Below are positions 21,866-64,000 of a stretch of DNA of 64,000 bases, one piece after another. Position numbers and translations under genes: made by a program. The notes beneath the pieces are model-generated. The model saw only the letters and a program-made list of their open reading frames with translations, did no database searches and had not been told where the DNA came from. Every line of letters begins with the position of its first letter. Positions within the stretch are counted from its first letter, which is position 1. Source of the stretch: Candidatus Oxydemutatoraceae bacterium (lineage in GTDB: Bacteria; Pseudomonadota; Gammaproteobacteria; Poriferisulfidales; Oxydemutatoraceae); assembly GCA_965211995.1 (NCBI GenBank), contig OZ243040.1:1031620-1095619 (forward strand). The letters run 5' to 3'.

Positions 21866-21995
21866 AGTCTGAAGTGCGGCGCCCGCCCGTTATCCTCCGG
21901 TGCCCGCCCGCGTCGTTTTCTGGATTCCCCCCGCCGCTGACCGGGCCGACAATACGCCGGGTAGCGGCACTCCCTCCCGGAAAGTGCGGAATCAA
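21866..21995. repeat. MITE-like element copy (partial or degenerate)
   Basis: agtctgaagtgcggcgcccgcccgttatcctccggtgcccgcccgcgtcg...ggaaagtgcgg resembles the left half of the copy at 43115. Confidence 0.4.
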
Positions 21996-37092: not shown

Positions 37093-37304
37093 ACCGAAAC
37101 CCCTCCTCGGTGGTTTATTGAGAAACAAAAGAATCGCTGATTATAGCCCCAAACCCGAGACCCGCCCGCCGCCGCGGCAGTCAAAATCAACTGCCTGCCT
37201 GCAACAATATGCTAAAAATATATGTAAAATCGCATTTATGAATATTGCACCGCCTCCGCCGGAACCTTGACAACGGGAACTGCGAGTGACCGACAATAGC
37301 CGGC

Positions 37305-38301: not shown

Positions 38302-39165
38302 TTGAACTCACCGCTCACAACCGCCGGCAAAACCGCGCTGCTTGCCTGCCTGCTGTCGCTCCTGCCGTCAATTCCGGGCGCAGCCGAAGACGCCCGGCAA
38401 TTGAACTTCCGCCTGTTCGAGGCCGCCGGGAAAGGCGATTCGGATGAGGTGCGCACGCTGCTCGGTCGGGGCGCTTCGGTCAAGGCGCGCAACCGTTTCG
38501 GCAACACCGCGCTGATCTACGCCGCGCGAGGAGGACACGCCGCCGTCTTGAAGTTGCTGGTCAAACGCGGCGCGGACGTTAATCAGCCCAACCTCAACCG
38601 GGAGTCGGCTTTGATCAACGCCGCGAAGAACGGCCACTTGGAGGCCGCGAAATTCCTGATCGCCACAGGCGCGGACGTCAATCAAAACAGCCTCAGGCAC
38701 ATTACCGCGCTGACCGAAGCGGTTTACGCCGAACACGCGGCGCTGGTCAAACTGCTGCTCGCGCACGGCGCCGACGTCAACGTGATGGACAACTCGGACA
38801 AAACCGCGCTGGTGTACGCGGCGAGTCACTGCAACCGCGAGATCTTCGACGCGCTGATGGAAAACAAACCCGACGTGAACCGCCGCCTCGGCAACGATTT
38901 AACGCTGTTGATATGGGCGGCGGCGTACGGACACCGGCATTGTGTTGACCGGCTGATCCACGCGGGCGCCGAACTCGACGCACAGGACAACCGCGGACGC
39001 AACGCCGTGATGGCGGCGGCGGAAGCGGGCTTTAAGGGAGTCGTCGAATTGCTCGCCGCAAACGGCGCCCCTCTCGAAAGCCGCGATCTGCAAGGCAGCA
39101 CCGCCGCCGATTTGGCACGAGCCAACGGCAAACAAGACGTCGTGCGCTACCTCCTGTCCCGATAA
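38302..39165 (+). CDS. Secreted ankyrin-repeat protein (about 7 ANK repeats)
   Basis: A signal peptide, then repeated GNTALIYAARGGHAAVLKLLVKRGADVN-type units. Confidence 0.8.
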   Translation: MNSPLTTAGKTALLACLLSLLPSIPGAAEDARQLNFRLFEAAGKGDSDEVRTLLGRGASVKARNRFGNTALIYAARGGHAAVLKLLVKRGADVNQPNLNRESALINAAKNGHLEAAKFLIATGADVNQNSLRHITALTEAVYAEHAALVKLLLAHGADVNVMDNSDKTALVYAASHCNREIFDALMENKPDVNRRLGNDLTLLIWAAAYGHRHCVDRLIHAGAELDAQDNRGRNAVMAAAEAGFKGVVELLAANGAPLESRDLQGSTAADLARANGKQDVVRYLLSR

Positions 39166-39640: not shown

Positions 39641-39680
39641 TCCATATACGGCGCGAGCGCTTCAGGCAGACGCCAATTTC

Positions 39681-39830
39681 CAGTCCGAAGCGCGATAAAA
39701 GAAAGCAGAGCAGACCGCTGAAAACCGCTCCCCTCTCAAGGGGAAGCCGGCCGGTGGGGGGAATACAAAAGACGACGCGGGCGGGCGCCGGAGGATGACG
39801 CCGGGCCAACGCCGCACTTCAGACTTGAAA
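39681..39830. repeat. MITE-like element copy with TIRs (cagtccgaagcgcg ... cgccgcacttcagacttg)
   Basis: It is flanked by a roughly 65-bp divergent duplicate of the serS 3' end (39606-39670 against 39907-39975). Confidence 0.6.
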
Positions 39831-39899
39831 CCGGCGGCGCACGCGGCCTTGTTGCCGATCTTAAGGCTTCAATTGGCGGATGCCGCCCGTTGCAATGCG

Positions 39900-42958: not shown

Positions 42959-43114
42959 CACCGCCGCCGCCCCCGCGTCGCCCGCCTGAATCAAGGCCGC
43001 AGCGAAGCGAGCCGGAAGGGAAAAGCCGGAAGATCAATCCGCGGATTTTGCAAATGAACGCAACTCGGGAGCGTGGCAAAACCGGGCGGCGCGGCGGAGT
43101 CGCCGGATCCACAA

Positions 43115-43345
43115 GCCTGAAGTGCGGCGTTGACCCGTCATCCTCCGGCGTCCGCCGCGTCGCCCTGCATTTCCCCCCCTGCCCGGTTGCGGGCGGCGGC
43201 GACACGCCGGCCCTGTTGGCGCCCGCCCGCGTCGTCTTTTGTCTTTCTCCCCGCCGGTCGGGCTGCACCCGGCCGACTCCCCCTTGAGGGTGGATGATTT
43301 TCAACGGCCTGCTCTGCTTCCTTTGCCGCACTTCGGACTGAAAGT
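43115..43345. repeat. MITE-like element copy (longest copy; perfect TIRs ctgaagtgcggcg / cgccgcacttcgg)
   Basis: About 230 bp, between the antiporter and the adhesin gene. Confidence 0.6.
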
Positions 43346-43394
43346 CGGCGCATCCCCGCTGAGCGCAGCAAACCTTACCCGCCTGCGTCATCTG

Positions 43395-43752: not shown

Positions 43753-46700
43753 CTAACCCGTGGTTAGACAACGACGGAGAGCCGTGCGCCGGCGATTGGC
43801 GCCGGAAACCAGAAAACCCATTGCCAGTATCAGCAGCCAGCCCCACTCCATTGCGCCGCCGCCGCCACCGCCGCCACCGGTGCTACCGCCACCGCCACCG
43901 CCACCGCCGCCGCCACTGCCGCCGCTCAGCGCGCTGGGGTCATGAATCACCCCGTTTCTCAATCTGTCCGCGTCATTGATGCGGCCGTCCTGGATCTCCA
44001 CCAGCAGGCACTCGTCCCCCACGTTCATGCCGGAGTCACTCGCCCGGCGCCAGATGCCGGGAAGCGACTCCCTGTCATCTCTCCGCTGCGCGTTAAGTCC
44101 GGGGCACGGCGCCGGCGCGCCGTAGTAATCATCTAACGGCGCTATCGCCCCGGTCGTGAATCGGCCGTTCCAGCCGTCTTCACCGGTGTACTTGCGCAGA
44201 CGTGCGCCGGCGAACTCCACCGCGCGCGCCAGCGGGATCACCACGCTTGCCAGGCCGCCGTTCCCTACCCCGCTCACGTGGAAATCAAACACCCCGGTCT
44301 CCGCGTAGCGCGGCGGCGTGCTGACCCCTCCGGTCGCGGCATCTACAGGCGTACTGCCGTCCGGGATCTGCGCCGACTCAGGCGCGACCTGCATCGCCGC
44401 CAAGGCATAGCCGCCGTACCCGACCCGAGGATCTCCCGTGCCGGATATCTCCAGAAACGCATTATCCCTTACCCGCAGCCGCCGAGTGCCTTCGCCAAGA
44501 TCCGGGTCGGGGCTCATCACGGGACCGAAACCAAACAAGACGTTGCCTCTCAATTGGATCCCGCACGCCAGAGAAATTCCGAGGTCCGGGTTGTCAGGGT
44601 CTATACCAAAAGTAGCGGGCACGGTTAATTCCAAGTCCAATCTCATCGCCGGCGAAAAATCCCCAAGTAGGATATTTCCATCAGACGGGAAAGTAACACT
44701 AGCCGTTCCCGTTTCCGTTGTTATCGTTATTTCAGGACTTCCGACGAAATTCTCATCCAGCCTCATGCCGTTAAAGGATACCTCCGCGGTGACGCGCTGC
44801 ACGCCGCTGCCGCGATTGGTAATGTCGGCCCCCATCATAATCACGGTCGCACCGGTATTCGCGTCAAGTGTGGCTTCGCATTGGTCAATGTTCACCGTGA
44901 AGAGCGAGGTGACATCAATATTCCTGGGGGGATCATCACCTTCGTCGATCTCATTATCGGCAACCACCGACACGAGCAGTCTTCCTGGTTCTATTTCATC
45001 CTCGCCGCTTGGGACGATGCCCCGGATCAGCACCTCGATCAAATCGCCCACCCGAATGTCGCTAACATCCAGGAAACTCACCCCCACCGCCGTTGCCGTC
45101 CCGGCGGTCGCAGGCACCGTCGCCATTCCCGGCACGCCATTGACCGTCAGCGGCGTCGTTGACACGCGGTTGCGCAGCATCGCCGTCACCTGATAGTGGA
45201 GGATGGTTTCCTCTGTGGGCCCAATCGTGAACACAAAACCCCCGCTCCCGATCGCCACCCGGGTCAAATCGGGAGGATCCGCAAAGAGCAGGACGCGGTC
45301 GGAAGAGGGCGGCGGCTCGTCCTCGACCTCGACCTCGACGTTGCCTGTTGTGACCCGCTGCGCGAGGGGAAGACCGGGCGGCACCCGACTCACCAACTCC
45401 ATGAACGGCGTGAAATCGGCAATGCGCAGCGACAGATCTGCCGTCCCCAACGTGACCTCGGCGGTCATGCGGGTGGCGGCCTGGGTCAGCGTGAGCGTAA
45501 CGGGCGGCGTGACGCCGGTAACCTCCACTTCCAACGTGAATTCGAACGACGACTCGTCCAGAATATCCTGCGACACGGCCACCGACACCGGCACCATCAC
45601 CTGCGCATTGGCGTTGGTCACCGAGTTCACCTCAAACCCCACCAGCGGCTGAACGTAGAAAATCTGTGTCCGCATCGTCAGTTCGCCGTTTACATCGGTG
45701 GCGACCCACAGCACCGACCTCAAAAACGAACCCAAATCAATAGAGCGATCATCCGCATCTCCATTGGGCCCCACCCTCGTGCAGTGTTCGTCGAGTGTTT
45801 CCAGCACTCGCACCGGCGCCGGCCCGGCAATCCTGTCCAACTCCATCCTGCACTCATCCGTGTACTCATAGGCGCGCAATTCCACGCAGCGGTCGCAACT
45901 CGTCTCCGGCACCGGTATCCGGGACGTCCGCCCCGGGCGGATAAAGATCGTTTCGCCACGGACCAACGTCCCCCCTCCCACCGTGTCAACCGTGATCACC
46001 GCTTCCGAGGCGCTCACCCTGAGTTGGAACGTCCGCATCACCGTTGAGGTCTCGCCGTCGTACGCCGAGATCGTCACCGTGTAGCCTCCCAGATCCGCGT
46101 CGTTATCCACCGTGCCGCTGACCGCGCCCGTCGCTATGCCCGTCGTCCCGTCCATCTTTGGATCGTAGGTGAGGCCGGCGGGCAGGCCGGTCACGGTCAC
46201 AGTCACCGCGTTGTTGTCCGTCGCCACGACTCGAAACGGCGTGATCGTCTGACCGCGGGAGTAGAACCTGTATCCCGGAGGCCTGTCGGCCGGGGGCATC
46301 GTAATCACCGGCGGCACACCGTTCACTCTCATTGTGAACGTCGCCACCACCGGATCGTTCACGCCGTCGTTCGCCGTGACCGTCACCAGGTAGTCCCCTG
46401 CGGCCGCGTCGTTATCCACCGTGCCGCTGACCATGCCCGTTGCCAAGTCGTAATTGAGGCCGGCGGGCAAACCGGCTACGTCCGCCGTCACCGCGTCGTT
46501 GTCCGTCACCGTGACCGGAAACGCCGTGATCGGCTGCGCCTGAGTGGTTTCTACAATGTTTTCCGGGACCGTGATCACCGGCGCCCTGTTGGTTATCGTC
46601 ATCGTGAACTGCACCTGAACCTCTGGATTCACTTGGTCGTTCACTGAGATCACCACCGTGTAGTCCTGCTCCCTGACTGTGTCGGACGCCACTGTGCCGC

Positions 46701-49098
46701 TGATTATGTCCGTCCTTGGGGTGTAGATGAGGCCGGAAGGCAGGGGGGCCACCCTCTTTCTCGCATCCGTGCCGGTGTTTGTAATCGTCAACTGCAACAC
46801 GACTGTCTCGCCCTGATCGTATTCCTGGTCCCCCGGGTGGGTGATATCCGGCGGCGCATCAATCAACGTTATGGTGAACTCCGCCATCGCGCTCTCCCCC
46901 ATCTCATCGGTCGCCGTGACCACCACCGTGGTGACCCCTATGGGCGCGTTGGGTCTCACCGTGCCGCTTACCACTATCATGCCCATGCCGTCGTTGTTGA
47001 TGGTTAGTGGTTGATCGTTGTCTGGTGTTGCGCTAAGGCCGTTGCTCGGCAAGCCGCCCACGTCCACCGTCACCACTCCGCTATCAATCACTTCGATATT
47101 GAACGGCTCAATTCTCTGGCTTTGCTTGTAAATCCTGTTCCCCGGCTCGGTGATGGTAATATCCGGCGGCGCATTCGTTATTTCTATATCAAACGCCTCC
47201 TCCGTCACCGGACTGTTCACGCCGTCGTTCGCCATGATCCTCACTGAGTAGATCTGCACCGGCGCGTTGCGCGCCACTGTGCCGCCGACATTGCCCGTCT
47301 CCGCATTGTAGTTGAGGCCGTTGGGCAAGTTGGTTACCGTCACCGTCAGCGGGTCGCCGTCATCCGTCACCGTGATCTGAAACGGCTCAATCATCTGCCC
47401 CTGGGTGAATACAAAGCCCCCCGGGCCAGTAATTTCCGGCGGCGCATTCGCCTCCACTGTCATCAGAAACGTGCTTGCCACCGCACCCTCTTCGTCTGTC
47501 GCCATAACCATCACTATGTAATCTCCCACCCGCGCGTTGTCATTCACCGTGCCGCTTATTTCCGCTCTGCCGCCGGTCAGCAGTGCAGGGTCACCTGGCG
47601 AAACCGGAACTTCAGTTGCGACGAGGCCGACGGGCAGGCTGCCGGCGTCCACGGTCACGCTGACCGGGTCGGTATCGTCCGCATGAATCACGAACGGCGT
47701 AATGTCCCGGCCCTGAGTCACACTTCTGCCATTTATCTGGTCCAGGTTGGTGAACACCGGCGGCACATTGGTCACCGTCATTTGGAATGTTGCCGTCGGC
47801 GAGTTCGCGCCGTCGTTCGCCGTCACCGTCACCGTGTAGTCCCCTGCCTGCGCGTTGCGCGCCACCCTGCCTGTCACTTCGACTGTTGCTTCACTGCCAC
47901 CGGGCGGCTGTCCGCTATTGAAACGGAATACCGGTTCGTCGAGGCCATCGGGCAGACCGTCCACCGTCACCGTCAGCAGGTCGCCGGCTATGTCCGTTAC
48001 CGTGATCGTGATCGACGGGAGGATCTCCTGCCCCTGGGTGAATTCTAAAATCTCCGTCGGGACCGTGATCACCGGCAGCGCGTTGAGCACCCTGAGGTCG
48101 AACATCACCGTCGGCGTGCTCACGCCGTCGCCCGCCGTGATTATCGCCGTGTAGGCCCTCACTTCCGCGTTGTTCTCCACCGTGCCGCCCACGCTCTCCG
48201 CCTCCGGATCATACTCAAGGCCGGCAGGCAGGTCGTCCACCGTCACCATCAGCAAGTCATCGGCTATGTCCGTCACCACGATCGGGATCGGCGGGGAAAC
48301 CGTCTCGCCCTGGGTGAATACGAAGTCCCCCGGGTCAGTAATTTCCGGCGGCGCATCGTTCACCGTCATCTGGAACGTTGCCGTCGGCGTGCTCGCGCCA
48401 TCGCCCGCCGCAATCGTCACCGTATAAGTCCCCGCTTCCGCGTTGTTCGCCACCTGGTCATCAATCGTGACCTCGACTGTGACCACGGCCACAGCCGGGG
48501 CGCCGGCCGTGCTTGTCTCCAGGCTGTGGCTGAGGCCGTCGGGCAGACCGACCACCGTCACCGTTGGTAAGTCGTTGCCAATGTCCGTCACCTGAACCGT
48601 GATCGGCGGGAAAACCGTCTCGCCCTGGGTGAACGTGAAAGTCTCCGCCGGGACAGGAATCACCGGCGGCGCATTGAGCACCGCTATGTCAAACGTTACT
48701 GGCTGGAACTCCTGCGTGCTCCCGCCCTGCTCCTCGCTCAGCCGAAAAGTCGCACTAATCGTCGTCATGTAGGTCATCGCTTCCACGTTGTTCGCCACCG
48801 TGCCGACCAATCCTTCCGTCGCCGAGTCATACTCAAGACCGGCAGGCAGACCGGTCACAGACACCATCACATTGCTAATGCCCAGCACTAGAGCGCCGTC
48901 ACTGTCGCGCACCCCCGTTAACACAATCGGGACCGGGAGAATCGTCTGGCCTTGGGTGAACACCTGGTTCCCCGGAGGAGTGATCGCGGGGCCGGGGAAT
49001 GCTTGGGCGGCGGCAAAATCAGCCTGCAACAACAAGCCGAGCGCCAAGACCGCGAAGCCGCCCGGAAATATCAGCGATAAAAGCCGCGACCGTCTCAT
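43753..49098 (-). CDS. Giant secreted adhesin-like protein (1781 aa) with 11-12 Ig-like (cadherin/He_PIG-type) repeats and a GlyGly-CTERM-like C-terminal sorting signal
   Basis: Signal peptide MRRSRLLSLIFPGGFAVLALGLLLQADFAAAQA. Repeats of about 95 aa follow (APPxIT.PG.FVFTQGETV.P..I.VTD...DLLTVTV.GLP.GLEYD....VGGTV.NNA..G.YTV.ITA.DG...PTATF.MTV.N), then a roughly 700-aa non-repetitive region. The C-terminus is SGGSGGGGGGGGGGSTGGGGGGGGAMEWGWLLILAMGFLVSGANRRRTALRR (Gly run, TM helix, Arg cluster). Confidence 0.8.
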   Translation of the reverse strand: MRRSRLLSLIFPGGFAVLALGLLLQADFAAAQAFPGPAITPPGNQVFTQGQTILPVPIVLTGVRDSDGALVLGISNVMVSVTGLPAGLEYDSATEGLVGTVANNVEAMTYMTTISATFRLSEEQGGSTQEFQPVTFDIAVLNAPPVIPVPAETFTFTQGETVFPPITVQVTDIGNDLPTVTVVGLPDGLSHSLETSTAGAPAVAVVTVEVTIDDQVANNAEAGTYTVTIAAGDGASTPTATFQMTVNDAPPEITDPGDFVFTQGETVSPPIPIVVTDIADDLLMVTVDDLPAGLEYDPEAESVGGTVENNAEVRAYTAIITAGDGVSTPTVMFDLRVLNALPVITVPTEILEFTQGQEILPSITITVTDIAGDLLTVTVDGLPDGLDEPVFRFNSGQPPGGSEATVEVTGRVARNAQAGDYTVTVTANDGANSPTATFQMTVTNVPPVFTNLDQINGRSVTQGRDITPFVIHADDTDPVSVTVDAGSLPVGLVATEVPVSPGDPALLTGGRAEISGTVNDNARVGDYIVMVMATDEEGAVASTFLMTVEANAPPEITGPGGFVFTQGQMIEPFQITVTDDGDPLTVTVTNLPNGLNYNAETGNVGGTVARNAPVQIYSVRIMANDGVNSPVTEEAFDIEITNAPPDITITEPGNRIYKQSQRIEPFNIEVIDSGVVTVDVGGLPSNGLSATPDNDQPLTINNDGMGMIVVSGTVRPNAPIGVTTVVVTATDEMGESAMAEFTITLIDAPPDITHPGDQEYDQGETVVLQLTITNTGTDARKRVAPLPSGLIYTPRTDIISGTVASDTVREQDYTVVISVNDQVNPEVQVQFTMTITNRAPVITVPENIVETTQAQPITAFPVTVTDNDAVTADVAGLPAGLNYDLATGMVSGTVDNDAAAGDYLVTVTANDGVNDPVVATFTMRVNGVPPVITMPPADRPPGYRFYSRGQTITPFRVVATDNNAVTVTVTGLPAGLTYDPKMDGTTGIATGAVSGTVDNDADLGGYTVTISAYDGETSTVMRTFQLRVSASEAVITVDTVGGGTLVRGETIFIRPGRTSRIPVPETSCDRCVELRAYEYTDECRMELDRIAGPAPVRVLETLDEHCTRVGPNGDADDRSIDLGSFLRSVLWVATDVNGELTMRTQIFYVQPLVGFEVNSVTNANAQVMVPVSVAVSQDILDESSFEFTLEVEVTGVTPPVTLTLTQAATRMTAEVTLGTADLSLRIADFTPFMELVSRVPPGLPLAQRVTTGNVEVEVEDEPPPSSDRVLLFADPPDLTRVAIGSGGFVFTIGPTEETILHYQVTAMLRNRVSTTPLTVNGVPGMATVPATAGTATAVGVSFLDVSDIRVGDLIEVLIRGIVPSGEDEIEPGRLLVSVVADNEIDEGDDPPRNIDVTSLFTVNIDQCEATLDANTGATVIMMGADITNRGSGVQRVTAEVSFNGMRLDENFVGSPEITITTETGTASVTFPSDGNILLGDFSPAMRLDLELTVPATFGIDPDNPDLGISLACGIQLRGNVLFGFGPVMSPDPDLGEGTRRLRVRDNAFLEISGTGDPRVGYGGYALAAMQVAPESAQIPDGSTPVDAATGGVSTPPRYAETGVFDFHVSGVGNGGLASVVIPLARAVEFAGARLRKYTGEDGWNGRFTTGAIAPLDDYYGAPAPCPGLNAQRRDDRESLPGIWRRASDSGMNVGDECLLVEIQDGRINDADRLRNGVIHDPSALSGGSGGGGGGGGGGSTGGGGGGGGAMEWGWLLILAMGFLVSGANRRRTALRRCLTTG

Positions 49099-52722: not shown

Positions 52723-52880
52723 TCCACCCGTGCCGAGGCTTGCACGCGACGACGGCGGCCCTTCAAAACAATTCCCGCTGCAACACGCCGGCAGTGAACG
52801 CCCGCGTCCTTCGCGCACAACTTGATCCACCCGTGCCGAGGCTTGCACGCGACGACGGCGGCTCTTCAAAGCAGTCCTCG
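52632..52880. repeat. 102-bp tandem repeat, about 2.5 copies, duplicating the last roughly 30 codons of epmB
   Basis: cttgcacgcgacgacggcgg.c.ttcaaaacaattcccgctgcaacacgccggcagtgaacgcccgcgtccttcgcgcacaacttgatccacccgtgccgagg is repeated. Track ORFs 52601..52825 and 52719..53468 re-encode ...VPRLARDDGGPSKQ.... Confidence 0.7.
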
Positions 52881-52924
52881 GATTCAAGCCTGAACACAAC
52901 GTCTGCCCGTCATCCTCTTGTGCC

Positions 52925-53080
52925 TGTCCGCCTCATCTGTGGATTTATCTTTGACCGGGCTGTCTTGTTTGAGCCTCAGGCGATGCCGCGCAACGCTTGC
53001 CTTCTTCCTTTTACCGCACTCCGGACTGAAAGAAGTCCCCGCTCCCGCATCAACCGCAAGCCGTCGTCGAAAGACGCCGG
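52925..53080. repeat. Dispersed repeat family 2, copy B
   Basis: cgcctcatctgtggatttatctttgacc...cttgtttgagcctcaggcgatgccgcgc...gcactccggactgaaag matches 24545-24760. Confidence 0.5.
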
Positions 53081-53173: not shown

Positions 53174-54058
53174 TTACCTCCGCTCGAGTGCGCCGATGCG
53201 CTCGGCGAGCGGTGGATGGCTCATGAACAGGCGCTTCAGCCCCGTAGCGCCGCCGCCCCTGATGCCGAAAGCCGCGAACTGCTTCGGCAGGTCGGGGGTT
53301 TCGTGCACCGCTTGCAGGCGCTTGAGCGCGGCGATCATCCGGTCGCGTCCCGCGAGGCGCGCACCGCCCTCGTCGGCACGGAATTCACGGCGGCGTGAAA
53401 ACCACATAACGATAGTCGTCGCCAGGATCGACAAGACGATCTGCGCGAGGATCGAAGTGATGAAGTAGGCCGGACCGTAGCCGTGTTGCGATCTGAACAC
53501 CACGCGGCTCACGATATGGCCGATGATGCGCGACAGGAAAATCACGAACGTATTGATCACGCCCTGGATCAGGGTCAGCGTCACCATATCGCCGTTGGCG
53601 ACGTGGCTGATCTCGTGGCCGAGCACCGCCTCGACCTCGCCGGGTTCCAGCGTGTGCAACAGCCCCTCGCTGACCGCGACCAGCGCCTTGTTGCGGAACA
53701 TCCCGGTTGCGAACGCGTTCGGCTGCGACGACGGAAAAACCCCGACTTCGGGCCTCGCGATGCCCGCGGCTTCGGCCTGCCGTGCGACCGTATCAAGCAG
53801 CCATTTTTCCTTGCCGCCGCCCGGCCCGGCGATGACTCTGACACCCAGCGAGCGCTTCGCCATCGCCTTCGACATCGCGAGCGAAATAAAGGCGCCGGAC
53901 ATGCCGAACGCCGCCGAGATGATCAGCAAACCGGTCAGGTTGAGATCCGATCCGCTTCTTAAGAGCAGGTTTTCAACGCCGAACAGGCTCAGCGTAATGT
54001 TCAATACGAACAAAACCGCGAGGTTGGTCGCCATCAGCAAAGCGATCCTTGTCAACAT
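53174..54058 (-). CDS. htpX: Protease HtpX (M48 zinc metalloprotease, membrane)
   Basis: HEISHVANGD is HExxH. Four TM segments. 294 aa. Confidence 0.9.
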   Translation of the reverse strand: MLTRIALLMATNLAVLFVLNITLSLFGVENLLLRSGSDLNLTGLLIISAAFGMSGAFISLAMSKAMAKRSLGVRVIAGPGGGKEKWLLDTVARQAEAAGIARPEVGVFPSSQPNAFATGMFRNKALVAVSEGLLHTLEPGEVEAVLGHEISHVANGDMVTLTLIQGVINTFVIFLSRIIGHIVSRVVFRSQHGYGPAYFITSILAQIVLSILATTIVMWFSRRREFRADEGGARLAGRDRMIAALKRLQAVHETPDLPKQFAAFGIRGGGATGLKRLFMSHPPLAERIGALERR

Positions 54059-54640
54059 AGCGCATCCTCCACTTCGAGACGGTCAATGCTGCGGCAGCTC
54101 TGAGGCAACTTGTGCCCGCGCCGCAATGTTCAATACGAACAAAACCGCGAGGTTGGTCGCCATCAGCAAAGCGATCCTTGTCAACATAGCGCGTCCTCCA
54201 CTCCGAGACGGTCAACGCTGCGGCAGCCCTGAGGCATCTTGCGCCCGCGCCGCAATGTTCAACACGAACAAAACCGCGAGATCAGTCGCCATCAGCAAAG
54301 CGATCCTCATCAGCATAGCGCGTCCTCCACTTCGAGACGGTCAACGCTGCGGCAGCCCTGAGGCAACTTGTGCCCGCGCCGCAATGTTCAACACGAACAA
54401 AACCGCGAGATCAGTCGCCATCAGCAAAGCGATCCTCATCAGCATAGCGCGTCCTCCACTTCGAGACGGTCAACGCTGCGGCAGCCCTGAGGCAACTTGT
54501 GCCCGCGCCGCAATGTTCAACACGAACAAAACCGCGAGATCAGTCGCCATCAGCAAAGCGATCCTCGTCAGCATAGCGCGTCCTCCACTTCGAGACGGTC
54601 AACTTTGCGGCAGCCCTGAGGCAACTTGCGCCCGCGCTGC
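54057..54640. repeat. 129-bp (43-codon) tandem repeat, about 4.5 copies, duplicating the htpX promoter-proximal region and first roughly 20 codons
   Basis: The unit boundaries, marked by atagcgcgtcctccact(t/c)cgagacgg, are at 54057, 54186, 54315, 54444 and 54573. On the minus strand each unit contains ATG CTG ATG AGG ATC GCT TTG CTG ATG GCG ACT GAT CTC GCG GTT TTG TTC GTG TTG AAC ATT GCG ... TGA. That is a 34-aa [37 protein letters not shown], which is a copy of the HtpX TM1. Confidence 0.8.
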
Positions 54641-57156
54641 CCGCGCCGGCCGCGGTAATGCGCCAGATCGGCGAACGCGATGCGCTTGAGGCGGCGCCCG
54701 GCATGCACGATCAGCGTCTGTCCCGGCTGCACGCAGATCGCGGCCGCAAGGCTTTCCTCGCCTGAAGCCAGGCGGCTTTTCGGTATATTGATCAACTTGT
54801 TGCCCCGCCCCTTTGACAATACCGGAATCTCCGCCAGCGGCACGACCAGCATATAGCCTGCGCTGCCGACCGCCACGGCGAGACCGGTCTTCGGGTCGCC
54901 CGCGGACGCCGCGGCGAGCGCGTGCGCGCCTTGGGGCACGCTCAACACTTGCTTGCCGGCGCGCTTGTGCGAGACGGTGTCGCCGAAACGCACCAGCAGT
55001 GCATAGCCGTGGCTGCTCGCGAGCAGATGCAAGCGGTCGCCGCCGCCGGTCATCACGCCGACGAAGTTCGTCGCTTCCGACAATGAAAAACAACTGCTGA
55101 GCGGCTCGCCCTGCCCGCGCGGCGACGGCAGGCTGCGCGCAGGCAGGCTGTAGCAACGGCCGCGCCCGTCGAGGAAAACCGCGTCGCGGCGGTTGTCGCC
55201 GCGCGCGATCGCGAGGAAAGCGTCTTTGGTGCGGTATTCAAGCGCCGCGGCGTCAACCTCGTGCCCGCGCACCACGCGCACCCACCCCATCCTCGACAAT
55301 ACGATCGAAAGATTTTCGACCGGCACCAACTGTTCATGTTTAAGTTCCTCGGCCGCGCCGCGCGCGACCAGCCGGGTGCGCCGTTCGTCGCCGCAGGCTG
55401 CGACGTCCGCCTTGAGTTCTTTTTTGACCAGGGTCTTCAGGCGCCGCGCCGACTTCAGGTACGCTTCGACGTCTTTTTTCTGCGCGCTCAGTCTCCGCTG
55501 CTCCTCGCGGATACGGATTTCCTCGAGTTTCGACAACTGGCGCAAACGGATCTCGAGGACCGCGCGCACCTGCACCTCGCTGAGCTTGAAGCGGCGCATC
55601 AACTCGGCCCCGGGGTCGTCCTCCTTGCGAATGATCGCGATCACCGCATCGAGATTGAGATACACGATCATCAGCCCGCCGAGTTCTTCGAGACGGCGGT
55701 TGATCTTAGCGAGGCGCCACGCGAGGCGGCGGCGGACCGTGTCCTTCCTGAAGTCGAGCCATTCGCCGAGCAGTGCCTTGAGCGTTTTGACCTGCGGCTT
55801 GCCGTCGTTGCCGATCACGTTGAAATTGACGCGGCGGTTGTATTCGAGGTCGGTGGTCGCGAACAGGTGCGACATCAGGCGCTCGCGGTCAACGCGCTTG
55901 CCGCGCGGCACCAGCACGAGCCTGACCGGATGCTCCTGGTCGGACTCGTCGCGCAGGTCCTCGATCCACGGCAATTTTTTGTCCCTGACCTGCGCCGCGA
56001 TCTGCTCGAGCACGCGCGTCGCCGACACCTGGTACGGCAGCGAAGTGATTACGATCTCGCCCCGCTCGACAACGCAGGTCGCGCGGATGCGGATCATCCC
56101 GGCGCCGTGCTCGTAGATCCCGCGCACGTCCCCGGTGTCGCTGACAATCTCGGCGCCGCCCGGAAAATCCGGCCCGCGCACGTCTTCAAGCAACTCGGCC
56201 AGCGTCGCTTTGGGCGAGTCGAGCAGGCGGATGCACGCCGCCGCCACTTCGCCGAGGTTGTGCGGCGGGACATCGGTCGCCATGCCGACGGCGATGCCCG
56301 AGGTGCCGTTCAGCAACAGGTTCGGCAGCCGCGCCGGCAGGCGCACGGGCTCCTCGAGCGTGCCGTCGAAGTTCGTGCGCCAGTCGGTCGTGCCCTGATC
56401 CAACTCTTCGGTCAGCGTCTTGGCGTAGGCGCTCAGGCGCGCTTCGGTGTAGCGCATCGCCGCGAACGACTTGGGGTTGTCAATCGAGCCCCAGTTGCCC
56501 TGTCCGTCGATCAGCGGGTAGCGGTAACCGAAAGGCTGCGCCATCAGCACCATCGCCTCGTAGCAGGCGGCGTCGCCGTGCGGGTGATACTTGCCGATCA
56601 CGTCGCCGACCGTGCGTGCGGACTTTTTCGGTTTGGCGCCGGCGTTGAGTCCGAGTTCGGACATCGCATAAACGATCCGCCGCTGCACCGGCTTCAGACC
56701 ATCGCCGAGAGCGGGCAGCGCGCGGTCGAGCACGACGTACATCGAGTAGTCGAGGTAGGCGCGCTCGGCGAACTCGACCAGCGGAACCCGGCTGGCGGGG
56801 GCGGCGGGGACGGCTTGCCGCGGGGGCTTGCCGCCGCCTTTCTTGACCGGGGCGCCGGCTTCAAGTTTGAACGCCGGCCCGTCGTCCTCTTGCGTCCGTC
56901 CGCGGCGTCTTTTGTATTTCCCCCCACCGCCCGGGCTGCGCCCGGCCGACTTTCCCTCAAGGGGAGAGTGTTCTTCAGCGGCCTGCGCTTTTTTCTTTGG
57001 CCGCACTTCGGACTGGAAGTTGGCGGCTTCCTTTACGACAGATTTCTTTGCGCCGGCTTTAGCGGATTTTTTCTTCGCGGCCACCTTGACGGATTTTTTC
57101 TTCGCGGCTTCCTTAGCGGCTCTCCGGACGGCGCCTTTTGCAACGACTCTTGCCAC
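54568..57156 (-). CDS. parC: DNA topoisomerase IV subunit A (ParC), with an unusual N-terminal extension
   Basis: The conserved core starts ...[44 protein letters not shown] at about 56800 and carries the active-site Tyr region ...[10 protein letters not shown]. There is no ATG/GTG/TTG between the MITE copy and the core. The only in-frame starts are a GTG inside the MITE (about 56990) or the GTG at 57156, which lies 5 nt after the HAD-gene stop. The latter would add an Ala/Lys-rich tail, [22 protein letters not shown]. Confidence 0.8.
56865..57020. repeat. MITE-like element copy (inverted orientation relative to the copy at 58155) inside the parC 5' region
   Basis: ggcttcaagtttgaacgcc...gtcttttgtatttcccccc...ccctcaagggg...ccgcacttcggactgg. 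Confidence 0.6.
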
Positions 57157-57160
57157 CGCG

Positions 57161-58090
57161 TCACTCGCTCAAATGACCGGGCGCAGTGCCGACGCTGCTT
57201 TCGAGTTGGCGCGCGCGCCGCTCGACGATGCCGTCGGCGACGTCTCTCGCGGTGCGCATCAGCCAGCGCCAGGTCGGCGTATCGGTGCGGTAGTCGGCCG
57301 GCCCCATCGCATCTACGCGCCGCTCCTTGTGCAGCAGGTCGTAGGCCTGGTCGTAGGCGAGTTCGGAGTGCGGATTGTGCACCGCGTAAGTGCGTCCGCC
57401 GAGGCGCTTGACCACCGAAAACACCGGCACGTCGCTCGGCCCGTCGGCGACGTAGATCATCTGCGGGATCGGCACGCGCCGCTCGCTTTCCTCCATGCGC
57501 GCGTTCACGTCGATGCCGGGCTCGACGTTGACGCCCTTGTTGATCTCGAAAATCGCGCGCGTCTTGGTGGTGTGATCGAGCACGTAGCCGATCGAAGACA
57601 AGCGCGTGCGCCCGTCGCCGCCCCGCTCGTCGAGCAACTCGCAGCCCCACACCCCGTCGAGATGACCGTGCAACGCGCTGCCGGCGATCATCTGCCGCAG
57701 GCCGGTGCTGACGACGTAGTGCTCGACCTTGATGTCGTGCGCTTGGTACGGCTCGCGTTCCAGCACCCGCTTCATCTCGTCGAAAAATTCCGGCAACCCC
57801 GGATAGAACTCAAGTTCGGCGCCGAGCGCGCGCAATTTGTCGTTGTTCAGCCCCTCGAAGACGCCGCGGCGCACGTAATCGAGAATATGACTCAGGTACA
57901 GCACCTCGTTGGACGTCTGATCGCAACCCTGCTCCTTGTACTTATCGGGCAGTTGATTGACTTCGTCCCAGAAAGCGCGCTCCTCAATGCCGTAGGCGGC
58001 GAACAGCGGCGCCTGCATGTGACCCGGAATCAGGGTCTTGTCAAAATCCCAGATCACCGCGACGATGTTTTGCGAAAAAAACTGCGTCAT
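57161..58090 (-). CDS. HAD-superfamily hydrolase
   Basis: Motif [13 protein letters not shown] (DxDxT). 309 aa. It lies between parE and parC and is bracketed by an inverted MITE pair. Confidence 0.65.
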
Positions 58091-58154
58091 GCCGGAGCCT
58101 GCGCGAGATTGCCCCTGCCGGCGAGCCGTCCGCGGCGCCCGTAGCCGGGAATTT

Positions 58155-58320
58155 CAACTGCCAGTCCGAAGCGCGGCCAACGGCAGAAAAGCAGGCCGCC
58201 GAAAATCACTTTTTCCCTGAGGGGAAGCCGGCCGGGCGCAGTCCGGCCGGTGGGGGGAAATACAAAAGACGCCACGGACGGACGCAAGAGGACGGCGGGA
58301 CGGCGTTCAAACTTGAATCC
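58155..58320. repeat. MITE-like element copy, flanked by a roughly 155-bp divergent duplication of the parE 3' end / HAD 5' end junction (57985-58140 against 58340-58500)
   Basis: ccagtccgaagcgcgg...ccctgaggggaagccggccggg...ggtggggggaaatacaaaagacgcc...cgttcaaacttgaatcc. The upstream duplicate retains the first roughly 35 HAD codons (MTRLFSQTLVAVIRDFGKTLIPG...) fused to nothing. Confidence 0.6.
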
Positions 58321-58445
58321 GGCGCCCCGGAAAGCGCGCTCCCCGAAGCCGCAGGCGGCGAACAGCGGCGCCTGCACGCAGCCCGGGATCAGGGTCTTGC
58401 CGAAATCCCGGATCACCGCGACGAGGGTTTGCGAAAACAACCGCG

Positions 58446-60335
58446 TCATGCCAGATCCTGCGCGAGGTTGCCCTTGTCGGCGAGCCATGCGCGGCGCTCG
58501 GACGCACGCTTGCGTGCAAGCAGCATGTCCATCGTCTCCTCTTCGGCGGCGCCCGCTGCGTGCACCAGTTGCAGCAGGCAGCGGCGCTCCACGATCATCG
58601 TGGATTCCCTGAGTTGTTGCGGGTTCATCTCGCCGAGTCCCTTGAAGCGCGTGATCCGCGCGCGCGCCGCGTCCCTCTGCGTAAGACCCGCGAGGCAGCG
58701 GTCGCGCTCCTCTTCGTTGTTCGCGTAGTGCACGTCCTTGCCGACGTCGATGCGAAACAGCGGCGGCACCGCGACGTAGGTGTGCCCGGCGGCGACCAGT
58801 TTCGGAAAGTGCCTGACGAACAGCGCGGCGAGCAAAGTCGAGATGTGCAGCCCGTCGGCGTCGGCGTCGGCGAGGATGCAAACCTTGCCGTAACGCAGCC
58901 CGGCGAGGTCGTCGCTGCCGGGCTTGACCCCGATCGCGGTCGCGATGTCGTGGATCTCCTGCGATGCGAGCACGTCGTCGGTGGCGGCCTCCCAGGTGTT
59001 CATGATCTTGCCGCGCAGCGGCATCACCGCTTGGAAGCGCCGGTCGCGCGCCTGCCGCGCCGAGCCGCCCGCCGAGTCGCCCTCGACCAGGAACAACTCG
59101 TTCTCGCCGAGGTCGCTCGAAGCGCAGTCGGCGAGTTTGCCCGGCAGCGCGAGGTTCAGGAACATGCTTTTGCGCGGCTGCTTTGCGTTCTTGCGGCGGC
59201 GCTTGTGCGCGTTCGCGAGCGCGAGTTCGACGATGCGTCCGCCCTCGCGCGGGTGGCGGTTCAGCCACAGGCTCAGCGCGTCTTTGGTCACGCTTTGCAC
59301 CACCGCGGCCGCTTCCTTGTGGGTCAGGCGCTCCTTGGTCTGGCCCGCGAACTGCGGATTTTCGATCTTCAAGGACAGCAGGTAGCAGACGTTCGACCAA
59401 AAGTCGTCGGGCGCCGGCTTGACGTTCTTCGGCGTCAATTCATGGAACTGCATGAACTCGCGCACCGCCTCGACAACCCCCGCGCGCAGGCCGCTGACGT
59501 GGCTGCCGCCCTGCGGCGTCGGCACCAGATTGACGTAACTCTCGGCGGGCGGCGGCGCGTCCTCGCCGACCCAGTTCAAGCACCACGCCAGTTCGTGGTC
59601 CTCGCCCGCGTGGCTGTCGCTGATGTTCTCGCCGAGCAGCAAGACGCACCCGTCGGCGAGCGAGTTGAAGTATTCGGGCAGCCCGTTCTGATAGCACCAC
59701 TCGCTGCGGTCGCCGCCGCGCTCGTCTTCGAGCGTGATGCGCAAGCCCGGACACAGCACCGCCTTTGCGCGCAGCAACCGGCGCAGACGTTTGCGGTCGA
59801 AGCGCACGCTGTCGAAAAACTCAGGGTCGGGGCGGAAGCGGATAGCCGAGCCCGAGGCGCGTTTTGCCGTCTTGCCGACCTCTGCGAGCGGACCCGTCGC
59901 CTTGCCGCCGCTGAAAGCCATGTTGTATTCCTTGCCGCCGCGCTTGATCCAGATCTCGAGGTGCTGCGACAAGGCGTTGACCACCGACACGCCGACCCCG
60001 TGCAGGCCGCCGGCGTAGCGGTAATGGCGGTCCGAGAACTTGCCGCCCGAATGCAGCGTCGTCAAAATCACCTCGACGCCGGAGCATTTGCGCTGAGGGT
60101 GCTTATCCACCGGCATGCCGCGCCCGTCGTCGCGCACGCTCAGCGAGTGGTCGCGGTGCAGCGTGATCTCGATCACGCCGGCGTGTCCCGCCAGCGCTTC
60201 ATCCACGCTATTATCTATGACTTCCTGCGCAAGATGGTCGGGGCTCGCGGTGTCGGTGTACATGCTCGGGCGCTTTCGCACCGGGTCGAGCCCGCTCAGG
60301 ATCTCGATTGAAGCCGCATCGTAGGAGGCGTGCAT
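58446..60335 (-). CDS. parE: DNA topoisomerase IV subunit B (ParE)
   Basis: MHASYDAASIEILSGLDPVRKRPSMYTDT...EVIDNSVDEA are the GHKL ATPase motifs. A Toprim EGDSAGGS is present. 630 aa, matching ParE size rather than GyrB. The 50 extra N-terminal codons in the track are Arg-rich junk. Confidence 0.88.
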   Translation of the reverse strand: MHASYDAASIEILSGLDPVRKRPSMYTDTASPDHLAQEVIDNSVDEALAGHAGVIEITLHRDHSLSVRDDGRGMPVDKHPQRKCSGVEVILTTLHSGGKFSDRHYRYAGGLHGVGVSVVNALSQHLEIWIKRGGKEYNMAFSGGKATGPLAEVGKTAKRASGSAIRFRPDPEFFDSVRFDRKRLRRLLRAKAVLCPGLRITLEDERGGDRSEWCYQNGLPEYFNSLADGCVLLLGENISDSHAGEDHELAWCLNWVGEDAPPPAESYVNLVPTPQGGSHVSGLRAGVVEAVREFMQFHELTPKNVKPAPDDFWSNVCYLLSLKIENPQFAGQTKERLTHKEAAAVVQSVTKDALSLWLNRHPREGGRIVELALANAHKRRRKNAKQPRKSMFLNLALPGKLADCASSDLGENELFLVEGDSAGGSARQARDRRFQAVMPLRGKIMNTWEAATDDVLASQEIHDIATAIGVKPGSDDLAGLRYGKVCILADADADGLHISTLLAALFVRHFPKLVAAGHTYVAVPPLFRIDVGKDVHYANNEEERDRCLAGLTQRDAARARITRFKGLGEMNPQQLRESTMIVERRCLLQLVHAAGAAEEETMDMLLARKRASERRAWLADKGNLAQDLA

Positions 60336-60473: not shown

Positions 60474-63400
60474 ATGAACACCCACACCACGACGGCCCTA
60501 AACGTAATTGAGGCGGCGGCGCCGAACGTCAACGCGGCGGTGTCGGCTTCCGCCGGCACCGGCAAGACCTGGCTGCTGGTGACGCGGCTGCTGCGGCTGC
60601 TGCTCGCCGGGGAACCGCCCGCCTCGATCCTCGCGATCACGTTCACGCAGAAAGCCGCCGCTGAGATCCGCACAAGGCTGACCTCGACGCTGCGCGACTG
60701 GACGCGCGCCGACGACGCCGCGCTCAAGCGCGAACTCGAGCACCTCGGCGCCGCGCCCGCGCAGGTGCGGCGCGCGCGCGCACTGTACGAAACGCTGATC
60801 TACGCCGAAAACGACATCCGCATCCTGACCTTCCACGCGTTCTGCGCGGAGATCCTCGAGCGCTTTCCGTTCGAGGCCAAAGTCCCGCCGGGGTTCGAGA
60901 TCTGCACCGAGGAATGGGAGTTGCAGGACGAGGCGCTGAACCGGTTGTACACGGCGGCGGCCGGTCCCGCTCAGGCCACGGCGCGGGCGCTGCAAACGTT
61001 GTTTGAAGCCTGCGGCGGGCTGGCCAGCACCAACCTCGCGCTCAGGAACTTCCTGAACCACCGCAACGACTGGCTCGCCTACGTCGAACCGGACACACAA
61101 ACGCCGGCGCAGACCGCGACCCGGCACTTGAGCGAAATGCTCGGCGTCGAGCCCGAAGACGCCGAACGCGGCATCGTGCTCGACGCGCCGACGCGCGAAC
61201 TGCTCGCACGGCACGCGCGGCTGCTCGCGCTGCACGACACCCAAACCTTCCGCGGACACACCGCTGCGATCGACCACTTTCTCGCGTCCGGCGCGGAAGC
61301 CGGCGCGGAAACGCTGCCGGCGCTGCTCGACTGCTTTTTCAAACGGGACGGCGGCGAGCGAGCGCACGAATTCACGGGCAACGCGTTCCGCCAGGCGCTG
61401 GGCCCCGAGTACGCCGAGTTTGACGCCGGGCGGGCGGCGCTGGCCGCAACGCTGACGACGCTCAAGGAAGTGTTACTCAAGCGCCGGACCTTGTGCCGCA
61501 ACCGCGCGTGGTACGTCGCGGGACAGCACCTGGCCGACATCTACCGCGAACTCAAACTCGCGCGCCGCCAACTCGACTTCAACGACCTCGAATGGCTCGC
61601 GTGCCGCGTATTGAACCGCGAAGACGACGCGCAGTGGATCCAGTACCGCCTGAACGAGCGCATCCGCCACGTATTGGTTGACGAATTCCAGGACACCAAC
61701 CCGCAGCAGTGGCAACTGCTCAAGCCGCTGCTCGAAGAAATGGCGTCGCAGCAGGACGGCGGCAGCGCGTTCATCGTCGGCGACGTCAAGCAGTCCATCT
61801 ACGGGTTCCGCCGCGCCAGCCCGGAGTTGCAGGACGAAGCCGGGAACTGGCTGTGCCGGCACATGGGCGGGCGGCTTTACACCACCGACGTCTCGCGGCG
61901 CTCCTCGCCGGCGGTGGTCGAATTCGTCAACCGCGTGTTCGACCCGGCCGGCGGGAACGAGGACGGCGGCGGCGGTGAACGCGGCAAAGCGCCGATGCTG
62001 CCCGGCTTCAGGACGCACGTCAGTCATCTCGATACGCCGGGCGGCGTCATCGTGCTGCCGTTCGCCGAAAAACAACCGGCCGCGGAGGCGCCGCGCGAGT
62101 GGCGCCGCATCCTGCGCGACCCGCCCGCGCCCGGCGGCGCTTTGCCCGCGCTCGCGGAAGGCGAGCGGATCGCCGCGTACATCGCGCGCATGGTCGGCGA
62201 CCGCGTCGCCGTGCACGACCGCGACGGCCGCGTGCGCCCGCTGCGCTTCGGCGACGTCACCTTGCTGTTGCGGAGACGCACGCGGCTCGACTGCTACGAG
62301 CAGGCGCTGGTCAAGGCCGGCATCCCCCACACCAGCGGGCGCACGGAAAAACTGTTCGGCTCGCTCGAAATCGCGGACCTGCTCGCGCTGCTTCAATTCC
62401 TGGTCAACCACGAGCGCAATCTCGATCTTGCGCAGGTGCTGCGCAGCCCGATCTTCGCCGCCACCGACGAGCAGTTGATCGCGCTGGCGCAAACCGCGGA
62501 CGGCTGCTGGTTCGCGCGTCTCGGGCGGCAGCACGGCGACGCCGGCCTGCAACGCGCACACGCATTGCTCAGCGACTGGATCGAGGCCGCGCGCACGCGG
62601 CTGCCGGCGCACGACCTGCTCGACCGCGTCTATCGCGAAGGCGACGTAATCCACCGCTACCGCTGCGCCGCGCCGGACGAGGAACAAGACCTGGTCGAGA
62701 AAAACCTGGTGAGCCTGCTCGACCACTCGCTCGAATTTGAAAGCGGGCGCTACCCGGACGTCGCGCATTTCGCGCGCAGCCTGAAGCGCCGCATCGCGCG
62801 CGCCCGCGGCGGGCGCGCGGCGCTGACGACGAGCATCGAACCCGACGACCTCGACCGCGTGCGCATCCTGACCATCCATCAGGCGAAAGGCCTCGAAGCG
62901 CCGGTGATCGTCCTCGCCGACTGCGGCAAGCAGAAAAAAAAAGCCGGCGCCTACGGCGTGCTCGCCGACTGGCCGCCCCACGGCGAACAGCCCGCCAACT
63001 TCCGGCCCGAAACGCGGCCCAAGGAAGCCGGGCAGGCCGCTGAAAATCGCCCCCCCCTCGGGGGGGAGGCGCCCGGGTTGCACCCGGCCGGTGGGGGGGA
63101 ATACACAAAACAACGCGGGCGGGCGCCGGAAGACGACGGGGCTACGCCGCACTTCAGACTTGAATCCGGCCCCGCGCATTTCCTGCTGGTGCCGAAATCC
63201 GGCCACGTTGACGCTTTCACCGAACAGTGCAAGCGCCGCCTCGAACAACGCGAAGCGAGAGAAGACGCGAACCTGCTGTACGTGGCGTTGACGCGCGCGC
63301 GCCAGTACCTGGTCATCTCAGGCAGCGGCAGCGAGCCCGCGGCCGACTGGTACGGGCTGCTCGAATCTCGCGCACCGAAAACGGTGACGGAGTTTGAAAC

Positions 63401-64000
63401 GGTGGCCGCCGAAGTCCCGGCGGATCAGGCGGCGGCCGCCGAAACCGCCGCCGAGAACGCCGCCGAATACAAGCCGCTGCCGGCGGCGCCCGCACTCGAG
63501 ATCCGCCCGCACGCGCTGGTCGGTGCAACGCCCGGCCGCGCAAGCGCCGCCGCGCGCATCGAAGACGAGGACGGGCAACTGCGCGGACAGGTGATCCACT
63601 ATGCCCTGAAACTGTTGAGCGAGCGCGCCGCAGAAGACGAACTGCAAAGCACCCTCGCCGCGCGCTTCCCGCAGGCTTCGGCGCACCTGCACGAGTGGCT
63701 CGAGCGCGCACGCGCGCTGGTCGCCGACGAGTCGCTGCGCGAATTGTTCGACGACGCGCGCTACGAACAGGTATTGAACGAAGCGCCGATCTCGTTCGTG
63801 CACGACGGCGACTCGTATTTCGGCGTGATTGACCGGGTGTGCGTCGGCCGTGACGCGATCTGGCTGGTTGACTACAAAACGCACGCGGCGCCGGACGCAC
63901 GCGCCGCGGCGCTCAAGGCACACTACGCCGCACAGATGCACGCCTACTACCTGGGCGTGGCGAAACTATGGCCGGGACGCACGGTGCGCACCTCGCTGCT
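60474..64000 (+). CDS. AddA/RecB/UvrD-family helicase-nuclease (SF1 helicase plus C-terminal PD-(D/E)XK nuclease), 3' partial at the window end; carries a MITE copy within the coding frame
   Basis: It is not in the ORF track, consistent with an ORF that never terminates inside the window. ATG at 60474 gives MNTHTTTALNVIEAAAPNVNAAVSASAGTGKTWLLVTRLL (Walker A). Further in, in the same frame as 60474 and 63864 by line-anchored position counts, are VLVDEFQDTNPQQW (motif II, 61671), RILTIHQAKGLEAPVIVLAD, LLYVALTRAR.QYLVISG and the terminal nuclease motif HDGDSYFGVIDRVCVGRDAIWLVDYKTH. The track shows no ORF in that frame between 60115 and 64000. Confidence 0.7.
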   Translation, partial: MNTHTTTALNVIEAAAPNVNAAVSASAGTGKTWLLVTRLLRLLLAGEPPASILAITFTQKAAAEIRTRLTSTLRDWTRADDAALKRELEHLGAAPAQVRRARALYETLIYAENDIRILTFHAFCAEILERFPFEAKVPPGFEICTEEWELQDEALNRLYTAAAGPAQATARALQTLFEACGGLASTNLALRNFLNHRNDWLAYVEPDTQTPAQTATRHLSEMLGVEPEDAERGIVLDAPTRELLARHARLLALHDTQTFRGHTAAIDHFLASGAEAGAETLPALLDCFFKRDGGERAHEFTGNAFRQALGPEYAEFDAGRAALAATLTTLKEVLLKRRTLCRNRAWYVAGQHLADIYRELKLARRQLDFNDLEWLACRVLNREDDAQWIQYRLNERIRHVLVDEFQDTNPQQWQLLKPLLEEMASQQDGGSAFIVGDVKQSIYGFRRASPELQDEAGNWLCRHMGGRLYTTDVSRRSSPAVVEFVNRVFDPAGGNEDGGGGERGKAPMLPGFRTHVSHLDTPGGVIVLPFAEKQPAAEAPREWRRILRDPPAPGGALPALAEGERIAAYIARMVGDRVAVHDRDGRVRPLRFGDVTLLLRRRTRLDCYEQALVKAGIPHTSGRTEKLFGSLEIADLLALLQFLVNHERNLDLAQVLRSPIFAATDEQLIALAQTADGCWFARLGRQHGDAGLQRAHALLSDWIEAARTRLPAHDLLDRVYREGDVIHRYRCAAPDEEQDLVEKNLVSLLDHSLEFESGRYPDVAHFARSLKRRIARARGGRAALTTSIEPDDLDRVRILTIHQAKGLEAPVIVLADCGKQKKKAGAYGVLADWPPHGEQPANFRPETRPKEAGQAAENRPPLGGEAPGLHPAGGGEYTKQRGRAPEDDGATPHFRLESGPAHFLLVPKSGHVDAFTEQCKRRLEQREAREDANLLYVALTRARQYLVISGSGSEPAADWYGLLESRAPKTVTEFETVAAEVPADQAAAAETAAENAAEYKPLPAAPALEIRPHALVGATPGRASAAARIEDEDGQLRGQVIHYALKLLSERAAEDELQSTLAARFPQASAHLHEWLERARALVADESLRELFDDARYEQVLNEAPISFVHDGDSYFGVIDRVCVGRDAIWLVDYKTHAAPDARAAALKAHYAAQMHAYYLGVAKLWPGRTVRTSL
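63000..63170. repeat. MITE-like element copy located inside the helicase coding sequence (between helicase motifs V and VI)
   Basis: ...gccgctgaaaatcgccccccc(c)tcggggggaggcgcccgggttgcacccggccggtgggggggaatacacaaaacaacgcgggcgggcgccggaagacgacggggctacgccgcacttcagacttgaatccgg aligns to copy 39681-39830 across its length. Confidence 0.6.

Follow-up and report, generated by a model that had tools for sequence, protein, structure and literature searches.

Repeats that lie in frame within protein-coding genes have been described in several bacteria. The extreme case is that of the Rickettsia palindromic elements (RPEs), found in frame in Rickettsia genes (Ogata et al. 2000, in the form in which it is summarised in PMC10969869 and PMC3184786). 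[quoted passage not shown] In Coxiella, QMITE forms in-frame fusions with genes, and its insertions into functional genes are at 3' ends (PMC5896051). Here we describe a MITE-like repeat that lies in frame within addA, the gene of a putative AddA/RecB-type helicase-nuclease, at the end of a 64,000-nt stretch of contig OZ243040.1 from Candidatus Oxydemutatoraceae bacterium (the whole of this stretch is called the window hereafter). The element family is new and so is the host, while the phenomenon of in-frame repeats was already known.

The gene, the repeat copy, its junctions and the two helicase motifs on either side of it are placed as follows.

60474-64000, plus strand: addA open reading frame (ORF), AddA/RecB-type helicase-nuclease; continues 18 codons beyond the window end, full protein 1193 aa
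62871-62897, plus strand: helicase motif V, TIHQAKGLE, with invariant T800, H802, K805, G806, L807 and E808
62991-62995, plus strand: left junction CCCGC, candidate target-site duplication (sequence read directly and compared with the empty site of relative L001)
62993-63171, plus strand: MITE-like repeat copy within addA, in frame, residues 841-899/900 (ANFRPETRPKEAGQAAENRPPLGGEAPGLHPAGGGEYTKQRGRAPEDDGATPHFRLESG)
63171-63175, plus strand: right junction CCCGC, candidate partner of the duplication (read directly and compared in the same way)
63273-63302, plus strand: helicase motif VI, LLYVALTRAR, with invariant Y936, V937 and R941

Translation in the addA frame gave 0 stops across 1175 codons (60474-63998), and the nearest in-frame stop upstream lies at ~60360. 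The original prediction, made from the sequence of the window, had proposed just such an uninterrupted ORF running off the window edge, and the public gene call confirms it: P0001, from a contig of 1,943,614 bp, is 100% identical to the addA product and 1193 aa long, its C-terminus aligns with those of homologues, and the ORF closes 18 codons past the window. Across 62900-63300, the segment in which a stop or frameshift had been named as the sign of a disrupted gene, the translation shows neither. All the motifs listed in the prediction do share one frame, with Walker A (GTGKT) at 60555-60569, motif II (DEFQDT) at ~61680, motifs V and VI as given above, and the nuclease motif DYKT at 63870-63881.

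The assignment to AddA is supported by domains, sequence match and fold match alike, in agreement with the prediction. P0001 contains PF00580, PF13361 and PF12705, its closest solved structure by sequence is Bacillus subtilis AddA (3U44), and the top Foldseek match of its AlphaFold2 model is the AddA of AddAB (4CEJ_A, E = 2.5e-41), with RecB ranking lower. UvrD-like helicase motifs I-VI and a C-terminal PD-(D/E)XK nuclease, which define the AddA class, are all present. This order of helicase and nuclease is shared with the AddA of B. subtilis AddAB (PDB 3U44, 3U4Q, 4CEH-4CEJ), but identity to that protein is ~19% and the window protein has a 60-aa extra loop between motifs V and VI. Among the matches listed, the nearest named AddA relatives (≤44% identity) come from uncultured Gammaproteobacteria, Sulfurivermis, Thiohalomonadaceae and ‘Ca. 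Porisulfidus’; an AddA alignment scan of genome contigs gave, again among the matches listed, relatives of ≤38% identity (a metagenome-assembled genome of Gammaproteobacteria and ‘Ca. Porisulfidus’).

An empty site is available in L001, a syntenic relative that shares the order parC, HAD-like hydrolase gene, parE, addA at ~80% DNA identity. Compared with that site, GGCGAACGG-CCCGACCATTTC (also given as GGCGAACGG-CCCGACCATTTCCTG), the window gene is exactly 180 nt (60 codons) longer, and the junction peptides read GEQPANFRPETR and FRLESGPAHFLLVPK. A full MITE copy at about 63000-63170, between motifs V and VI, had been predicted; blastn and nhmmer located it at 62993-63171, and the insert measures 60 aa rather than the ~55 aa first estimated. 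In an alignment of 120 homologues the additional 60 aa occur in the window protein only and are absent from the other 119/119, in all of which (119/119) the junction segment WPxxxxRPxxFLL has a constant length.

In the AlphaFold2 model of AddA (mean predicted local distance difference test score, pLDDT, 86.5), residues 839-893 are coil with pLDDT <50, and the flanking strands 829-832 and 902-905 are retained. The insert is thus placed, by prediction, in a low-confidence coil at a hairpin turn with the core intact. We interpret it as a predicted disordered loop at the tip of a β-hairpin, the rest of AddA being confidently folded. By homologue alignment and model, the insertion site is a conserved, length-invariant β-hairpin between motifs V and VI, and not the 2B/variable region in which the insert had been expected.

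The L001 AddA (P0002; 10001-13618) has lineage-specific inserts of its own. One, of 23 aa, lies near residue 95; a second, rich in Gly, Asn, Asp and Ser, follows the motif III region, and a third precedes the nuclease domain. These inserts are unrelated to the element.

The repeat in addA belongs to a family with many members in the window. An nhmmer profile recovered 5 near-full and 6 partial copies in the 64 kb, that of addA included, and blastn with 62900-63300 as query found homologous stretches at 39.7, 57.0, 43.3, 58.2, 21.9, 1.9, 43.1 and 24.5 kb (lowest E 1e-31). A 25-nt core pattern of the element matched 5 times in the window vs 0 expected, and each of the two terminal 20-mers, both of which match the termini of the addA copy, occurred 4 times vs ~0 expected by chance. 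According to a gene map based on G+C at third codon positions (GC3) and to Pfam, all window copies apart from those in addA and parC are intergenic or at a gene edge.

58148-58333, plus strand: copy in the intergenic space of parE and the HAD-like hydrolase gene; the junction of these genes is present on either side of it as a 178-nt direct repeat (nhmmer)
39671-39836, plus strand: copy in the intergenic spacer that separates the ankyrin-repeat gene from serS, with frame-breaking indels (nhmmer)
43212-43355, minus strand: intergenic 3'-truncated copy, adjoining a further fragment at 43097-43179 (nhmmer)
21864-21987, minus strand: intergenic partial copy (nhmmer)
52879-53034, minus strand: intergenic diverged copy (nhmmer)
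1901-1995, minus strand: intergenic partial copy (nhmmer)
24482-24554, minus strand: partial copy comprising the 3' end, located where a solute-binding-protein gene probably has its 5' end, with a further fragment at 24671-24707

The consensus element is ~175-179 bp long with 68% G+C, and the distance between conserved termini is 166-179 bp. Its left end, CGCCAACTTCCAGTCCGAAGTGCGG, and the reverse complement of its right end, CGCCGGATTCAAGTCTGAAGTGCGG, match at 20/25 positions, giving imperfect terminal inverted repeats of 25 nt that match more weakly in the addA copy itself. The element is too short for a transposase gene, and its conceptual peptides match nothing but its own copies. A parent insertion sequence with the same ends was not found in the window, and there are no element termini near its sole transposase remnant (rve fragment, 14859-15311). 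Searched at gathering thresholds, Rfam returned one tRNA only for the whole window, and the element matches none of its RNA families. A structured RNA was tried as an explanation and was unsupported, with z = -1.4 and -0.9 vs shuffled sequence for single copies folded as DNA or RNA, and with a covariation term of ~0 in a four-copy consensus fold. The best explanation is a small, non-autonomous, MITE-like family, previously undescribed.

The copy at 58148-58333 has particular surroundings. The direct repeats on its two sides (57964-58141 and 58323-58500) each contain the parE-3'/HAD-5' junction and are 85% identical; in the relative L084, parE and the HAD-like gene are 8 nt apart and the element is absent. 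The junction duplication at 57964-58500 may have left both genes whole after insertion. Duplications of gene junctions recur in the lineage, since L001 has, between the HAD-like gene and parE, an ORF of 78 aa (7540-7776) that encodes a GyrB C-terminal domain and duplicates part of the 3' end of parE. As for the copy at 24482-24554, the ORF 23636-24760, which encodes a solute-binding protein, has a probable start and a charged signal-peptide beginning (MTGQRRTANLNPPGRFF...) that appear derived from the 3' end of the element, in a different frame.

A second copy lies in frame in parC, the gene of topoisomerase IV subunit A.

54568-57156, minus strand: parC, topoisomerase IV subunit A, 862 aa, with PF00521 at residues 145-582 and a Lys/Ala-rich N-terminal tail
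56853-57025, minus strand: second in-frame copy, within the N-terminal tail of ParC and sharing its peptide frame with the AddA copy (nhmmer E = 9.5e-57)

The public gene call for ParC (P0135) also has 862 aa. Its GTG start comes immediately after the stop codon of the HAD-like hydrolase gene upstream of it, at a position homologous to that in the relative L085. The element peptide in ParC reads ...FKLEAG. No ATG, GTG or TTG occurs in frame between the element and the conserved ParC core, so a functional ParC must translate element-derived codons. Topoisomerase IV is normally essential. The ParC tails of relatives are Lys-rich and element-free, and those of the clade (P0136-P0145) extend over 20-35 aa. 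In L001 the tail (5800-6383, minus strand) is enlarged to ~130 aa through tandem repeats (KKLAKVAGKSATGSARKPAKK...); the empty site of the ParC copy is not definable from L001, the tails being too divergent and repeat-rich for base-level alignment. At the other end of the gene, a tandem repeat with a 129-nt unit (53996-54637; 5 copies matching at 96%) reaches from the 3' end of parC into the 5' start of an M48 peptidase gene; L084 and L001 each have a single copy of this unit, with the two genes abutting or overlapping.

In this genome the element peptide is not limited to AddA and ParC. Six further proteins (P0123, P0124, P0126, P0129, P0131 and P0134), all from the same 1,943,614-bp contig, were returned when the peptide was used as query in an exhaustive HMMER search. 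Riboflavin synthase shows a clean 64-aa element insertion relative to the solved structure 4E0F, type II secretion protein B (GspB) has the element peptide in a linker, a 409-aa protein contains it three times, and an aminoacyl-tRNA-synthetase-like fragment has it too. One repeat therefore occurs in frame in several unrelated genes of a single contig, namely those of AddA, ParC, riboflavin synthase and GspB. The query was the peptide of the AddA frame, so that copies in other frames were undetectable by this search. Because the peptide library held one representative per 50% identity cluster, and AddA and ParC themselves were not among the results, the true number of element-bearing proteins is probably higher.

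How long addA has carried its copy can be judged from divergence. The copy is 82% identical (18% diverged) to the consensus of the other copies, an age estimate for which the consensus was built from 4 or 5 copies only, and the 178-nt repeat that flanks the parE/HAD copy is 85% identical (15% diverged); both values suggest that the family is old. In simulations of neutral decay, the probability that the addA ORF stayed without a stop was 0.01 at 5% divergence and 0 at ≥10%. Given the 18% and 15% divergence just mentioned, these values indicate that the reading frame of addA was kept under selection after insertion. The ratio of non-synonymous to synonymous substitution rates (dN/dS) of addA vs L001 is ~0.3 for the part upstream of the insert and for the part downstream alike, as an average over both lineages since their split and not since the insertion. 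Neither of the two genic copies has frame-breaking indels, whereas intergenic copies have deletions of 16 nt, of 1 nt and larger.

We conclude that the insert is probably a tolerated passenger peptide: disordered and functionally neutral or mildly costly, in an AddA that selection otherwise keeps intact. A small mobile repeat, non-autonomous and without a transposase, inserted into addA in this lineage, presumably by transposition. Element and junction duplication together add exactly 180 nt with a stop-free sense frame, and because of these two properties the gene would be read straight through. AddA would thereby gain 60 translated residues at the turn of the β-hairpin between motifs V and VI; the enzyme would tolerate the extra loop and stay active, and selection would keep the rest of the gene intact. 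The same process would have put copies in frame into the ParC tail, into riboflavin synthase and GspB, and into further proteins encoded by the 1.94 Mb genome. That most copies are intergenic is the pattern to be expected where selection purges all coding insertions but those that preserve the frame and sit in a loop, linker or tail, as has been described for RPEs.

The limits given above for the age estimate and for dN/dS weigh against this conclusion, and other observations do so as well. The hairpin being of invariant length, a 60-aa insert could impair AddA despite the intact frame. An addB-like gene was not found beside addA in the window, in L001 or in L084. The candidate target-site duplication at addA, of 2-5 bp, is ambiguous, CGC being also the terminus of the element, and the other copies in the window, which are older, show no duplication that is consistent. 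An autonomous element with matching ends was not found in the window either, and the element folds no better than shuffled sequence.

Some of these points lead to the strongest alternative, in which the ORF is intact but insertion into the hairpin inactivated AddA, the gene being a recent casualty or one kept for partial function. The constant length of the insertion site in 119/119 homologues speaks for such an in-frame pseudogene, as do the small genome (1.94 Mb contig), a dN/dS that at ~0.3 is not very low, and the lack of a visible addB gene in the window. Small genomes often lose recombination genes. However, none of the helicase and nuclease motifs is damaged, and alignment with homologues extends to the C-terminus of the protein; the element copy is ~18% diverged, and 5% of neutral divergence already leaves the gene stop-free just 1% of the time; dN/dS is equal on both sides of the insert; and ParC carries a copy too. 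Continued constraint argues against a decaying pseudogene, and we regard an in-frame loss of activity as unlikely.

The tolerated-passenger reading also has to be compared with domestication, which the original prediction favoured: the insert would have taken on a role in AddA, such as that of a new interaction loop. In favour of this, the frame has stayed open, and the peptide frame is the same in AddA, ParC, riboflavin synthase and GspB, although the search could find only that frame. Against a gain of function, the insert is confined to one genome among 120 homologues and is predicted to be disordered, and of the 25 codons changed relative to the family consensus 21 are non-synonymous and 4 synonymous. 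Three of the six frames of the element are stop-free, as expected from G+C composition alone (P = 0.37), and intergenic copies encode the same peptide as genic ones. The idea that the element had evolved stop-free frames was rejected on the same expectation. These results point to tolerance and not to co-option, and domestication appears improbable to us.

An assembly artefact, in which a repeat copy was wrongly joined into addA in a metagenome-assembled genome, is very improbable: the source does look like a single contig derived from a metagenome, and chimeras in assemblies are classically caused by repeats, but the addA copy is unique (≤82% identical to any other window copy) and far shorter than the flanking unique sequence, the insertion is precise at 180 nt with matching junctions in an otherwise collinear coding sequence, and four independent genes have the same kind of precise in-frame insertion.

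How does a tolerated passenger of this kind compare with the described systems? Like RPEs, the element is a short dispersed repeat of ~100-180 bp that is both intergenic and in frame in unrelated housekeeping genes, with a consistent peptide frame, at positions that may be compatible with the fold, in a small genome. Unlike them, it has as its host an uncultured gammaproteobacterium that is unrelated and G+C-rich (61%), the genic copies documented number only a handful vs dozens for RPEs, and two syntenic relatives are without the element altogether. The likeness rests on the insertion pattern, and sequence kinship is not expected. The analogy with RPEs had been drawn in the original prediction; it is apt, and has become stronger through the copies in ParC, riboflavin synthase and GspB, but the statement that such insertions are unusual outside Rickettsia was too strong. 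With ERIC/YPAL, BOX/RUP/SPRITE, the Anabaena MITEs and QMITE, the element shares a non-autonomous nature, inverted ends, a mostly intergenic location and occasional in-frame fusion with ORFs. Most of the cases reported for those families alter gene ends or hypothetical proteins, whereas here the core of a helicase is entered between catalytic motifs.

We propose tentatively, as an idea that may well prove wrong, that this genome is an independent gammaproteobacterial counterpart of the RPE phenomenon, with one element colonising many housekeeping proteins in a single frame, catalytic cores such as that of the AddA helicase included. If so, the element would be intrinsically “insertable” by virtue of its length and of a frame that is free of stops and prone to disorder, and would offer small genomes a general route to new protein loops. 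Mobile repeats that survive in frame within enzymes are a rare natural experiment on where large insertions are tolerated and on how loops originate. Provided that the proteins are active, the copies would map unexpectedly permissive sites in AddA and ParC, and a G+C-rich gammaproteobacterium would join the short list of genomes whose coding sequence was colonised in the manner of RPEs. Automated annotation already calls such chimeric proteins ordinary genes, with the repeat unflagged.

The family appears confined to this lineage. By nhmmer, element copies were found in neither of the syntenic relatives L001 and L084, and in L085, where two element motifs were looked for, neither matched. The core pattern had 0 matches in 185,579 GTDB species-representative genomes and 2 in metagenome contigs of the Joint Genome Institute (JGI), L002 and L003. 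The former, a 27-nt match on a contig of 40% G+C, looks like chance.

The rest of the window gives some indication of the biology of the host. Positions 8000-11000 have a low G+C content (0.43-0.50 vs a window mean of 0.61) and contain no high-GC3 ORFs; the integrase-core fragment of the rve family (150 aa, 14859-15311, minus strand) lies a few kb away, and together they may represent a decayed, horizontally acquired island. With its 1.94 Mb contig and an ankyrin-repeat protein, the host may be a symbiont. Genes of the window include those for pyrroloquinoline quinone (PQQ)-dependent dehydrogenases, formate-tetrahydrofolate ligase, CbbQ and the ankyrin-repeat protein; a PQQ biosynthesis cluster, two PQQ-dependent dehydrogenases, the ankyrin-repeat protein and a 1781-aa immunoglobulin (Ig)-domain (He_PIG) protein occupy 17791-21402, 25419-27218, 35383-37128, 38302-39165 and 43753-49098. 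This gene content suggests a methylotrophic, possibly host-associated gammaproteobacterium.

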